A stretch of 12,912 nucleotides of DNA from Escherichia coli (GTDB lineage: Bacteria > Pseudomonadota > Gammaproteobacteria > Enterobacterales > Enterobacteriaceae): NCBI RefSeq assembly GCF_003334305.1, contig NZ_QOWS01000042.1; one strand, given 5' to 3'. Below are positions 3,618-6,303 of the stretch, in pieces. Below the pieces are notes generated by a model. It searched no databases. It saw only the letters and a list, made by a program, of their open reading frames with translations, and was not told the DNA's origin. A program made the position numbers and the translations under genes. Position 1 is the stretch's first letter. The number at the start of each line of letters is the position of its first letter.

Positions 3618-4064
3618 TCACCCCGCCAGCCATTGCAGAATCATGTCGCGGGTCATTGCCTCAACATCATCATTTACACCCAGAAGGCGACGCTCTGCGT
3701 AACGCACCTCCGGTCCCTTACGACTGACGCGATCTCGCAGGCCGTAATGGTGAACGCGGGCAATGCGCTGCACCTTGCCTTCAAACTGCACGCTGGCAGA
3801 GTCGGTGCTGGCGGCAGTTTTCAGGTATTTTGTGGTGCGCAGCTTTGCAAACATCTGACGTTTGATGCGCCCCTTCTTGCTGCGTGCTGTTACCCTGCGC
3901 GGTTCATAACTGCTGCCATCTGGATTGCGCTGCATCCTGATATTCTGCTGCTGTGTCCGGCGCAGTTCCTGCGCCAGCTGGCGCATCATGCGGCTTCTCG
4001 TGGCTGGTTCCAGATTCGCCAGCAAGGCACTCAGCCAGTCGTCCACCTTCTGCAGTTCAGCCAC
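3618..4064 (-). CDS. S: Tail completion protein, P2 gpS-like
   Basis: 148-aa ORF in the P2-equivalent position between R and V. The only start in frame is GTG at 4064..4062, preceded by GGTGA, and it overlaps the 3' end of R by 8 nt. Called mainly on synteny and size. Confidence 0.75.
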   Translation of the reverse strand: MAELQKVDDWLSALLANLEPATRSRMMRQLAQELRRTQQQNIRMQRNPDGSSYEPRRVTARSKKGRIKRQMFAKLRTTKYLKTAASTDSASVQFEGKVQRIARVHHYGLRDRVSRKGPEVRYAERRLLGVNDDVEAMTRDMILQWLAG

Positions 4065-4488
4065 GTTTCACCGTCCACATTTCTTCAGGTTCATCAGGTT
4101 CCGCTATAGCTTCAACACTCGACACACTACCGTCAGTGCTGACCAGCACACGCTCCGTCAGTTGCAGGTTCAGGCTGATATCACAGACATCGTTGCGCAG
4201 AATATCCACCTCAAAGGTGAATAGTTTTTCCCGTAACGCCGGGTTATTGATGGCATCGGGCTGGTTATCCCTCAGCCACAGCAAAACCGGGGCCATCAGC
4301 AGATTCTGGTCGCCGCTGAAATCCTCAATCACCGCGTTCAGGGTGTAACGGTACTCCCACGACATGGAGCTGGCCCCCGTGGCAACCAGCGAACCGTTAT
4401 CCACAAACAGATGCAGTTTGTCCGGGTTATTGCGGACATAAGGCACCGCTTTATTGAGGGCGTGGCGCAGGGATTGTGGTTTGTTCAC
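4057..4488 (-). CDS. R: Tail completion protein, P2 gpR-like
   Basis: The ORF track start is a TTG at 4509. The GTG at 4488..4486 is preceded by AGGAG with a 7-nt spacer and gives (M)NKPQSLRHALNKAVPYVRNNPDKLHLFVDNGS..., resembling P2 gpR as recalled. It overlaps the lysC 3' end. Confidence 0.75.
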   Translation of the reverse strand: MNKPQSLRHALNKAVPYVRNNPDKLHLFVDNGSLVATGASSMSWEYRYTLNAVIEDFSGDQNLLMAPVLLWLRDNQPDAINNPALREKLFTFEVDILRNDVCDISLNLQLTERVLVSTDGSVSSVEAIAEPDEPEEMWTVKRG

Positions 4489-4741
4489 TGTTTTGCTCCT
4501 GACACGCAATAATCATGTCCACTTTGTCTGCACAGACCGCCCAGGCGGCCTCCGTTTCATCCAACAACGCGTTCAGATCACCGTTAGTGCGCGGCTCTGC
4601 CTGATCCAGCCGACACGGTGTCACTCGCGGACAACCACTGACGATAAGCTGCACCTCCGGTGAGCGTCGGACGTTCCCGCAGCCGGATAATGTCAGCAGG
4701 CAAAGGAGTATCAGTCCAGCGGCGTAAATCCTCGTTCTCAC
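4451..4741 (-). CDS. lysC: Outer-membrane spanin lipoprotein (LysC/Rz1-like), starting inside lysB in a different frame
   Basis: 96 aa, the length recalled for P2 LysC. The N-terminus MRTRIYAAGLILLCLLTLSGC has a positively charged n-region, a hydrophobic core and a lipobox (L-S-G-C), and the rest is Pro-rich. GTG start at 4741 is preceded by GAGGA. Confidence 0.7.
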   Translation of the reverse strand: MRTRIYAAGLILLCLLTLSGCGNVRRSPEVQLIVSGCPRVTPCRLDQAEPRTNGDLNALLDETEAAWAVCADKVDMIIACQEQNSEQTTIPAPRPQ

Positions 4742-5012
4742 GTTTCAGTTCCTCGATCCGGTGTTGTCGTTGTCTCAGCAGCGCGCTGGTCTGTTCTGCT
4801 TCGGCATAGAGCCGCGCCTGCTCCCGGTTATTGGTTTCAGTCAGAATGGACAGGCTGATAAGCTGGCTGTTGCTCTTTGCCAGTGCCTGGCTTTTGCTCT
4901 GCAGCTCGTCTGCCTGCGTGCTAATGGTCTGGCTGGCATCAGCCAGCCGCCACGTCTGCCAGCCCAGCGCCGCCAGTAATAACGCCAGCACAACCAGCAG
5001 CAACCGGTTCAT
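4584..5012 (-). CDS. lysB: Inner-membrane spanin (LysB/Rz-like)
   Basis: 142 aa with an N-terminal membrane anchor (MNRLLLVVLALLLAALGW) followed by a charged, coiled-coil-like periplasmic region. Its ATG (5012..5010) overlaps the lysA stop (ATGA). Confidence 0.75.
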   Translation of the reverse strand: MNRLLLVVLALLLAALGWQTWRLADASQTISTQADELQSKSQALAKSNSQLISLSILTETNNREQARLYAEAEQTSALLRQRQHRIEELKRENEDLRRWTDTPLPADIIRLRERPTLTGGAAYRQWLSASDTVSAGSGRAAH

Positions 5013-5386
5013 GCTGCTACCTGTTGCGCCATCTGATTACGGGTGATCCAGAAGGCAATAACGGTCAGTAGATAAAAGACCAGGGTAATAGCCCACCCCG
5101 TCCAGGCGAGACTTACAACAATCAGCAATCGCATCACCCAACTGATAAATACGTTTTCTTTTCGGGTAATTGTCTTCAGTAAAGATGCCCTTAACTCCTG
5201 CCAGAGCGGGCCATTCTTAATTAACGCAGCCAGTGCTACCGGAATTACCGCCCATGTCAGCAAACAGGCTACCCAAACGCCGGACGCTGCCAGTACCGGA
5301 AAAATCCCCTGCGGATACACCATTGCTGCGATTAACAGCGCCATCCATAACATCAGAAACAGTCCGCTGATTAATTTCTTTTTCAT
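5009..5386 (-). CDS. lysA: LysA-like membrane protein (lysis regulator; proposed antiholin in P2)
   Basis: The ATG at 5386..5384 (MKKKLISGLFLML...) is preceded by GGGAG and lies 1 nt after the K stop. The product is about 125 aa with four predicted hydrophobic segments. The GTG at 5458 given by the ORF track would overlap K and is less likely. Confidence 0.65.
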   Translation of the reverse strand: MKKKLISGLFLMLWMALLIAAMVYPQGIFPVLAASGVWVACLLTWAVIPVALAALIKNGPLWQELRASLLKTITRKENVFISWVMRLLIVVSLAWTGWAITLVFYLLTVIAFWITRNQMAQQVAA

Positions 5387-5387
5387 T

Positions 5388-5900
5388 TCAGTTTGCTCCC
5401 TGTAAACACCAGACCATCTCCCGCGCACGGCGGTTATCCAGCCCCTGATTAAACACACCTTTTACATAAACCCAGCGCGGCAACTGTCGGCACGCATCCG
5501 CCCAGCGCCGCTGATTGAGCAATTTCACCAGCGTGGAGCTGCAGGCATTGCCCGTCCCCACGTTGAAGGCAAACGACACCGTAGCGTCATACACCTTCTG
5601 TGGTGGCAGTTGCTTCACACACCTTTCCAGTACCCGCTCCACACGCAGCACGTTGGAGATCAGCCCTTCTGCTGCCTGTCGTTCCGTGATTGTTTTGCCG
5701 GGAATGACGCCCGATGTATTACCAATGCCGTCGGTCCAGACACCCGCGCTGCACTGATACGGCTGCAGACGACAGCCTTCGTAATCAGCAATCAGTTTCA
5801 GCCCCTCCACGGAGGTGTGAAGCTGCTGAAAACCCGGCAGCGTGGCAGCAATAGCCAGCACGGCCCCGACAAGGCAGCGTTTAACGATTGATGGATTCAT
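5388..5900 (-). CDS. K: Endolysin, GH24/T4-lysozyme-like, with an N-terminal signal-anchor-release-like segment
   Basis: 170 aa. The motif E41-x8-C50-x5-T56 (YEGCRLQPYQCSAGVWTDGIGNT) matches the E-8-D/C-5-T catalytic triad of T4-type lysozymes. Residues ~8-24 (RCLVGAVLAIAATLPGF) form a weakly hydrophobic Ala/Gly-rich stretch. A strong RBS (GGGAGG) precedes the ATG at 5900. Confidence 0.85.
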   Translation of the reverse strand: MNPSIVKRCLVGAVLAIAATLPGFQQLHTSVEGLKLIADYEGCRLQPYQCSAGVWTDGIGNTSGVIPGKTITERQAAEGLISNVLRVERVLERCVKQLPPQKVYDATVSFAFNVGTGNACSSTLVKLLNQRRWADACRQLPRWVYVKGVFNQGLDNRRAREMVWCLQGAN

Positions 5901-6096
5901 AGTCCTCCCGCGAGATCTGCCCGTCGCGCAGAAGCTGGTAGGATTTGTGTTTGTAGTACCAGTTGATAGCCAGCATCAGTACACCAATCATCAGACCGCC
6001 CAGCGTTGAGGCATCCTTGATGGACAAATCGCCCAGCCAGGCCAGCACGACGGCGATGCAATACGTGATAAAGGCGCTGATTCGCTCAAGCGTCAT
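5881..6096 (-). CDS. Y: Small holin (two predicted transmembrane segments, charged C-terminus)
   Basis: 71 aa, MTLERISAFITYCIAVVLAWLGDLSIKDASTLGGLMIGVLMLAINWYYKHKSYQLLRDGQISREDYESINR. It occupies the P2 Y position immediately upstream of the endolysin and overlaps the K start by 20 nt. Confidence 0.7.
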   Translation of the reverse strand: MTLERISAFITYCIAVVLAWLGDLSIKDASTLGGLMIGVLMLAINWYYKHKSYQLLRDGQISREDYESINR

Positions 6097-6099
6097 AAT

Positions 6100-6303
6100 T
6101 CAGTCCCATAGCTGGACGGTCTGCACGGTGGTGGTGGTCGGAATGTCCGGCAGCTCCACCTGCAGCCCGTGAGGTAAAAAGGGGCCGTATTCGGCAAGCC
6201 CCGGATTTGCCTTCAGTACCTGCTCCGTGACCCCCTGCGTGCGCCCGTAATGACGCCAGCAAAGCGCGTCCACCGTGTCATACTGATGCGCACGCACTTT
6301 CAT
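6100..6303 (-). CDS. X: Tail protein X (P2 gpX-like, LysM-like)
   Basis: 67 aa, the length recalled for P2 gpX, with ...YGRTQGVTEQVLKANPGLAEYGPFLPHGLQVELPDI... Its ATG (6303..6301) overlaps the L stop (ATGA). Confidence 0.8.
   Translation of the reverse strand: MKVRAHQYDTVDALCWRHYGRTQGVTEQVLKANPGLAEYGPFLPHGLQVELPDIPTTTTVQTVQLWD

Follow-up and report, generated by a model that had tools for sequence, protein, structure and literature searches.

The lysis cassette of the window

The stretch of Escherichia coli DNA analysed here (12,912 nucleotides of contig NZ_QOWS01000042.1, RefSeq assembly GCF_003334305.1), hereafter the window, carries a lysis cassette of five minus-strand genes named Y, K, LysA, LysB and LysC. 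The remaining window is a P2-type late region, with portal, terminase, scaffold, capsid, L and X on one side of the cassette and R, S, V, W, J and I on the other. The cassette runs from the stop codon of LysC at 4451 to the start codon of Y at 6096, a span of 1646 nucleotides (nt); these are the limits that an earlier note on this DNA had assigned to it, and they proved exact to the base, as did the limits of all five genes. We consider it highly probable that the cassette belongs to the late operon of a P2-like (Peduoviridae) prophage in which an HP1-type holin/endolysin module replaces the P2 genes Y and K at the position between X and R, and that it acts by the pathway proposed below. Matches of the cassette genes to PHROG families were found at E-values of 1e-26 to 1e-66. 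Because the matches to curated families (PHROG, NCBIfam and Pfam) lie far beyond chance, the open reading frames (ORFs) of the cassette are regarded as genuine genes.

K begins inside the 3' end of Y, with a 20-nt overlap, the stop codon of LysA and the start codon of LysB share an ATGA, and the GTG start of R at 4488 lies within the 3' end of LysC, giving an overlap of 38 nt. Shine-Dalgarno sequences were found before K (GGGAGG), before LysA (GGGAG), 8 nt upstream of the LysC GTG (GAGGA) and before the R GTG (AGGAG). A longer LysA ORF of 149 amino acids (aa) starting at GTG 5458 was ruled out, since ATG 5386 is the start with the GGGAG sequence and the shorter form agrees over its full length with its homologues and with the NCBIfam model. 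The TTG at 4509 was likewise rejected as the start of R, as GTG 4488 has the AGGAG sequence and agrees with the annotation of relatives. A search for internal promoters and terminators in the cassette gave consensus matches no higher than shuffled expectation. The features are listed in Table 1.

Table 1. Features of the lysis cassette and of its two flanking genes; positions are those of the window. TMD, transmembrane domain; SAR, signal-anchor-release.
Feature	Positions	Strand	Description
Y	5881-6096	-	71 aa; class II (two-TMD) holin, HP1 family
Y TMD1	6031-6081	-	residues 6-22, ISAFITYCIAVVLAWLG; follows the net-neutral N-terminus MTLER
Y TMD2	5953-6012	-	residues 29-48, ASTLGGLMIGVLMLAINWYY; from alignments; basic C-terminal tail after it
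K	5388-5900	-	170 aa; GH24 lysozyme, predicted P1 Lyz-type SAR endolysin
K SAR-like segment	5829-5876	-	residues 9-24, CLVGAVLAIAATLPGF; from composition; K7-R8 in front
K catalytic/regulatory motif	5733-5780	-	E41-G-C43-x6-C50-x5-T56; E-8-C-5-T plus caging Cys
LysA	5009-5386	-	125 aa; four-TMD homologue of P2 LysA; putative antiholin/lysis-timing modulator; accessory
LysB	4584-5012	-	i-spanin; N-terminal TMD at residues 4-20 (hydropathy)
LysC	4451-4741	-	o-spanin lipoprotein; GTG start within lysB
LysC lipobox	4679-4690	-	L-S-G-C, lipidated Cys21; from the translation
X	6100-6303	-	flanking tail gene; 61% identity to P2 X
R	4057-4488	-	flanking tail-completion gene; 51% identity to P2 R; GTG start

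Endolysin K

K contains a GH24 catalytic domain (Pfam PF00959 at 7.3e-39, residues 39-161) and matches the endolysin family PHROG 7 at 8e-66. Soluble relatives such as P22 lysozyme (2ANV) were observed to align with K only from residue 30. Since the lysozyme domain begins at residue 39 and the soluble relatives at residue 30, the first 25-30 or so residues of K constitute an N-terminal extension; the full-length alignment to a cytoplasmic lysozyme, which the earlier note had named among the findings that would speak against its reading, was thus not obtained. With no upstream start possible for K and no further Met before residue 162, the protein must include the hydrophobic N-terminus. This N-terminus reads MNPSIVKR-CLVGAVLAIAATLPGF, with the basic pair K7-R8 placed before a 16-residue stretch rich in Ala, Gly and Thr. 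The SAR domain is described as an uncleaved, weakly hydrophobic stretch rich in Gly, Ala and Thr, accompanied by basic residues (PMC9239132), and the segment of K matches this description. Segments were compared by their Gly/Ala/Ser/Thr share (GAST) and by the Wimley-White (WW) octanol value per residue, one of three hydrophobicity scales applied in all. The WW value and GAST were found to be -0.18 and 0.44 for K, -0.10 and 0.44 for P1 Lyz, and +0.04 and 0.62 for R21, the endolysin of phage 21. The segment of K groups with the SAR domains of P1 Lyz, R21 and HP1 Lys, apart from the ordinary TMDs of LysB and LysA.

It would be conceivable that K begins with a Sec signal peptide which is cleaved off, such that K is secreted to the periplasm and controlled in some other way, since the n-region MNPSIVKR and the hydrophobic stretch do look like those of a signal peptide. 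However, the sequence as read shows no small-x-small site after the hydrophobic core (AIAATL is followed by PGFQQ), the segment lines up with the SAR helix of P1 Lyz (1XJT), which is not cleaved, and an invariant cysteine, C9, makes sense only if the segment is kept in the mature enzyme. The missing cleavage motif and the invariant anchor cysteine together render a cleavable signal peptide very improbable.

The best matches of K in the PDB are two forms of phage P1 Lyz (1XJT, E = 7.6e-26; 1XJU, E = 1.9e-24), whereas the phage 21 R structures (3HDE/3HDF) rank lower, at about 6e-17. The alignment with 1XJT takes in the N-terminal hydrophobic region of K, and the overall identity between K and P1 Lyz is 37.5%. 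K carries the catalytic triad defined as E-8-(D/C)-5-T (PMC4640515). Its residues E41, C43, C50 and T56 align column for column with E42, C44, C51 and T57 of P1 Lyz, while R21 has Val and Asp at the columns of C43 and C50, respectively. The third cysteine, C9, is the anchor cysteine and lies at the cytoplasmic edge of the segment. All three (C9, C43 and C50) are invariant in the SopEPhi, Dagavirus, Yersinia, Midge and EtG phages and in HP1 Lys, and they are kept in 79 of 79 intact K N-termini from 80 IMG/VR loci, the remaining locus having a truncated K. The natural variation among the IMG/VR loci was observed to cluster in the SAR anchor, where it is conservative (A13T/G/V, A18T and T20A/M/L). 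In P1 Lyz, the tethered enzyme is reportedly inactive, with its catalytic cysteine caged in a disulfide, and the anchor cysteine is said to isomerise this caging disulfide once it is out of the membrane. As its three-cysteine pattern is that of P1 Lyz, K is predicted to be a P1-Lyz-type SAR endolysin and not one of the R21 type, which implies that it would be exported, tethered and switched on by disulfide exchange. The candidate classification of K as an R21-type, cysteine-free SAR endolysin was ruled out by C9, C43 and C50. The Ala/Gly-rich, SAR-like N-terminus and the E-8-C-5-T triad described in the earlier note were both recovered, with E41, C50 and T56 exactly placed; its parallel with phage 21 is refined in that K is nearer to P1 Lyz than to R21.

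Holin Y

Hydropathy scans of Y, 71 residues long, revealed just the two hydrophobic segments listed in Table 1 and no third one, in agreement with the earlier note, which had read two from the sequence. The loop between them (DLSIKD) is short and acidic, and the C-terminal tail contains five Lys and Arg residues. Two TMDs, a neutral N-terminus and a basic tail together indicate that Y has the predicted topology of a class II holin with both termini in the cytoplasm (N-in/C-in). The protein matches the holin family PHROG 20 at 1.4e-26 and the HP1 holin family of Pfam (PF16080) at 3.8e-9 over residues 6-57, a range including both TMDs, and it shows a weak match to the phage 21 S family (PF04971, 9.6e-5). 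The identical protein in RefSeq/NCBI has the product name 'HP1 family phage holin'. Judged by these matches, Y is an HP1-family class II holin and should be filed as such.

P2 Y is 93 aa long, in line with the figure of about 93 aa in the earlier note, has three hydrophobic segments and is dissimilar to Y: hhalign assigned a probability of 1.2% to a match between the Y family and P2 Y, and blastp gave no useful match. Y and K were therefore ruled out as orthologues of P2 Y and K, as similarity is lacking and both the number of TMDs and the enzyme family differ. A relationship of Y to the P1 pinholin LydD was also ruled out, similarity being absent.

Is Y a pinholin?

A profile built from six members of the Y family was found to match S21, the holin of phage 21, with an hhalign probability of 89% (E = 2e-6), the match covering both TMDs; the S21 query was 100% identical to the copy in the phage 21 genome. 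Plain blastp of Y against S21 returned no match, and the homology is at most remote. Before TMD1, the acidic-basic pair E4-R5 of Y aligns with D-K in S21, within an N-terminal motif, E/D-K/R-I-S/T, that is common to the Y family and S21. In TMD2, a small-xxx-small stripe of Y (S30/G34/G38/N45) aligns with G40/S44/G48/N55 of S21. The S21 numbering of G40, S44 and G48 is presumably that of Pang et al. 2010. The acidic-basic pair before TMD1 of S21 times the flipping of this TMD (bioRxiv 10.1101/2021.04.20.440580), and a role for a glycine zipper has been described for pinholin TMD2 (PMC9025707). The gene neighbourhood points in the same direction. Most phages with a gene for a SAR endolysin have one for a pinholin too (PMC9239132), and an HP1-type holin was found next to a SAR lysozyme in all of the approximately 87 loci examined, whereas in P2 and 186 a class I holin goes together with a soluble K. 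In the Shewanella prophage LambdaSo, genetic experiments have shown that an HP1-family holin acts with a SAR endolysin and depolarises the membrane (bioRxiv 10.1101/2024.01.23.576932). We therefore lean towards the view that Y behaves as a pinholin.

Several observations weigh against this view. TMD1 of Y has a GAST of 0.31 and a WW value of -0.57, as compared with 0.62 and -0.02 for TMD1 of S21, composition being a proxy for the ability of a TMD1 to exit the bilayer. Its WW value is not SAR-like; the TMDs of LysB and LysA have similar ones (-0.49 to -0.80). TMD1 is also six residues shorter than that of S21 and lacks its Gly/Ser/Ala-rich stretch. The TMD2 glycines are not kept in distant members of the Y family, which have Ala/Gly/Ala there. 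Nor was a dual start, from which an antiholin could be made, observed in Y, which has a single N-terminal Met; X ends in a TGA placed one codon upstream of the Y ATG, which excludes a dual start, and a dual-start antiholin isoform was ruled out. Canonical holins that make large holes can also partner SAR endolysins, an example being LydA and Lyz of P1 (PMC6116005). Sequence alone is considered insufficient to establish holin function, for which experimental proof is needed (PMC12642591).

Such observations would be accommodated if Y were a two-TMD holin that is not a pinholin, whose TMD1 stays in the membrane and which makes large holes or other depolarising lesions, with the de-energised membrane then freeing K. 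The ordinary hydrophobicity of TMD1, the single start, the precedent of LydA with Lyz and the remoteness of the similarity to S21 all suit this explanation. We nevertheless think it rather unlikely, because the match to S21 spans both TMDs, the N-terminal acidic-basic pair and the TMD2 stripe are conserved, this type of holin and a SAR endolysin strictly go together in the loci examined, and the HP1-family member of LambdaSo acts as a pinholin partner. In addition, 71 residues and two TMDs would seem to offer scant material for lining micron-scale holes. Pinholin behaviour thus remains our preferred reading of Y. Of the arrangement known from phage 21 to which the earlier note had likened the cassette, the two-TMD holin paired with a SAR endolysin stood up; a SAR-like TMD1 and a dual start, which S21 has, were not found in Y.

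TMD1 of Y is short, aromatic and fully hydrophobic, and there is no antiholin isoform. With these properties, triggering without externalisation of the S21 kind may be possible, and the trigger mechanism of Y may differ from the S21 paradigm. A broader proposal, which we put forward as doubtful, is that the HP1-family holins of enterobacterial P2-like prophages form a distinct kind of class II holin that does not externalise TMD1, or that makes large holes, and whose timing is tuned by LysA.

The start region of the holin gene was observed to differ between lineages. In the lineage of the Yersinia, Midge and EtG phages, the final codons of X contain an ATG that shares the reading frame of the holin, giving MGL(K/S/T)M... 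and a possible S21-like dual start; the start region of the Yersinia phage carries an extra Lys. In the lineage of the window and SopEPhi, the equivalent ATG of X is 13 nt away and out of frame, with the stop codon of X intervening (window positions 6096-6110).

LysA and the spanins

LysA matches NF038378 at 5.2e-36 (123.6 bits, against a cut-off of 40) and PHROG 162 at 8e-44. It begins with MKKK, has four hydrophobic segments and is 26% identical to P2 LysA, a protein described as an antiholin (PMC3091744). In the P2 record, lysA is non-essential and related to timing, and Y is essential. Among the 77 IMG/VR loci that retain K and LysB, LysA is present in 54, and K directly abuts LysB in the other 23. 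The gene is missing from the cassettes of Dagavirus, Yersinia YenM_06.16-2 and 186 as well. In the loci without LysA, the identity of LysB falls to 82-86%, which suggests a recombination boundary.

LysA could in principle be the chief effector of lysis timing, as a second holin or a releasin-like factor, with Y as its auxiliary; it is a four-TMD membrane protein encoded directly after K, and some SAR systems need extra membrane factors, such as the releasin gp25 of Mu and Lcc6 of LambdaSo. Against this role stand its absence from the near-identical cassettes and phages just named, in which Y is always there, the contrast in essentiality recorded for P2, and the dissimilarity of LysA, which belongs to a separate family (NF038378), to the DUF2730 releasins. 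Such a role for LysA is regarded as highly unlikely. By its family, its distribution and its resemblance to P2 LysA, this protein is instead classed as accessory, with a putative antiholin role for the LysA variant found here.

PHROG 162 and the RefSeq record of P2 call LysA an 'endolysin', yet it is a four-TMD protein without an enzymatic domain, and the label is a propagated misannotation. In the SopEPhi record, LysA is left unannotated.

LysB was identified by TIGR03495 (172 bits; cut-off 92.75) and LysC by NF038368 (124 bits; cut-off 27). LysC is 42% identical to P2 LysC, the alignment running from residue 1. Its gene has 158 nt in common with lysB, in a different frame, and then continues for 133 nt beyond the lysB stop. 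LysB and LysC are a two-component spanin of the 'overlapped', P2-type architecture, P2 being the prototype of this architecture and lambda representing the embedded type (PMC6139136). Embedded or 'nested' spanins were ruled out by the 133-nt extension. The earlier note had used 'nested' in its title, which is the wrong term, and its description of the genes, with lysC starting inside lysB in another frame, outrunning it and overlapping R, was accurate (158, 133 and 38 nt). LysC is truncated in phage records, to 57 aa in KP12 and 38 aa in 500465-1, and is omitted in SopEPhi.

Proposed lysis pathway

In the pathway that we propose, Sec would export K, and the weakly hydrophobic SAR segment, left uncleaved, would anchor it in the inner membrane, with K7-R8 in the cytoplasm and C9-F24 in the bilayer. 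If K works like P1 Lyz, a C43-C50 disulfide would lock the catalytic residue C50 for as long as the enzyme is tethered. Y would build up in the inner membrane and, at the trigger time, form lesions that collapse the proton-motive force; these lesions would most likely be small, pinholin-like and lined by TMD2. The SAR segment would then exit the bilayer, allowing C9 to attack the caging disulfide and free C50, and the active K would degrade the murein. The LysB/LysC complex would subsequently fuse the inner membrane with the outer one. LysA, as an optional four-TMD component, may adjust the timing.

Distribution and significance

The chromosome of E. coli A7 (NZ_CP028767.1) was found to carry the cassette with 100% identity, and at a coverage of at least 80% it is present in 775 of 5426 complete E. 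coli genomes (~14%). Records of the exact Y protein come from 752 contigs, those of the exact LysA from at least 1000. A single-protein scan of IMG/VR with Y detected 567 stretches containing Y relatives, near-identical ones only. The cassette is 97% identical in the Klebsiella phages 4LV2017 and KP12 (clone 3) and in Escherichia phage 500465-1 (Wadgaonvirus), and 80-90% identical in Felsduovirus relatives such as Salmonella SopEPhi. E. coli A7, 4LV2017, KP12, 500465-1 and SopEPhi all have the order X-Y-K-LysA-LysB-LysC-R and the overlaps seen in the window, and the near-identical cassettes differ from that of the window by a few percent of nucleotides.

Much of the annotation is already in place. 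RefSeq labels the five proteins of E. coli A7 as HP1 family phage holin, lysozyme, DNZ54_00345 family protein, LysB and LysC. The SopEPhi annotation of 2003 describes K as 'similar to gp17 lysozyme of bacteriophage P1'. The labels holin class II, SAR endolysin, putative antiholin, i-spanin and o-spanin were given by the Center for Phage Technology to phage Midge, which is more distant. The SAR domain, the resemblance to P1 Lyz and spanins overlapped in the P2 manner were all pointed out in the paper on KP12, whose authors also sought a pinholin partner (PMC9902359). The primers printed there for KP12.peg.319, the near-identical homologue of K, fail to match any part of the KP12_3 locus, the gene itself included, and the forward one is identical to the KP1 primer; given this mismatch, the lytic spot test is not attributable to KP12.peg.319. 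The KP12 authors themselves call the lytic activity unverified (PMC9902359). For both reasons, the spot test was discounted as experimental support for K. Although the KP12 record is classified in Vequintavirinae, its clone KP12_3 is a P2-like element and probably represents a prophage that was co-purified.

The cassette is thus an ordinary lysis block, annotated before, of a P2-like prophage that is very common in E. coli and Klebsiella, and it is already known; its HP1-type module is a common Peduoviridae alternative and not an unusual one. The analysis has little discovery value and a modest practical use, namely in correcting annotation (the 'endolysin' label of LysA, and LysC where it is truncated or missing) and in assigning K to the cysteine-regulated P1 Lyz subclass. 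The pinholin label often given to HP1-family holins, a very abundant family, rests on analogy.

Comparison with known systems

How does the cassette compare with the lysis systems of well-characterized phages? In phage 21, as here, the holin is a class II protein of about 70 aa with two TMDs, its gene comes directly upstream of that for a GH24 SAR lysozyme, and a two-component spanin follows. However, S21 has an MKSM-type dual start that Y lacks, R21 is without the cysteine-based regulation seen in K, the spanins of phage 21 are embedded where those of the window are overlapped, and phage 21 has no equivalent of LysA. The closer counterpart of K is P1 Lyz, which likewise combines the E-x-C...C...T pattern with a cysteine in the SAR segment. 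The two enzymes differ in the position of this anchor cysteine (C9 at the cytoplasmic edge in K, C13 inside the segment in P1 Lyz) and in an 11-residue insertion of P1 Lyz that is absent from K. The P1 holins LydA, LydC and LydD are unrelated to Y.

The P2 cassette occupies the same position between X and R, and its LysA (26% identity), LysB (31%) and LysC (42%) are homologous to those of the window, with spanins of the same overlapped architecture. P2 K, unlike K of the window, is a 165-aa soluble lambda-R-like enzyme without an N-terminal TMD and is unrelated to it. The contrast with P2 drawn in the earlier note was thus well founded, P2 having a three-TMD Y and a soluble K without meaningful similarity to their counterparts here. 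Haemophilus phage HP1 resembles the window in having an HP1-family two-TMD holin followed by a GH24 lysozyme, and HP1 Lys resembles K in its cysteine-containing hydrophobic N-terminus and its EGC...C...T pattern. HP1 Hol is 20% identical to Y and has a longer C-terminal tail. In Shewanella LambdaSo, with its S(So)/R(So) pair, the HP1-family holin is needed for depolarisation and lysis together with a SAR endolysin, although that system, unlike the window, has alternative starts and needs the extra factor Lcc6. Both kinds of module occur within the single genus Eganvirus, where 186 has a class I holin with a soluble endolysin and EtG an HP1-type holin with a SAR endolysin. In the sample of loci examined, holin type and endolysin type were always switched together, and the slot from X to LysB is a mosaic hotspot of module exchange in Peduoviridae, with at least two alternative modules.

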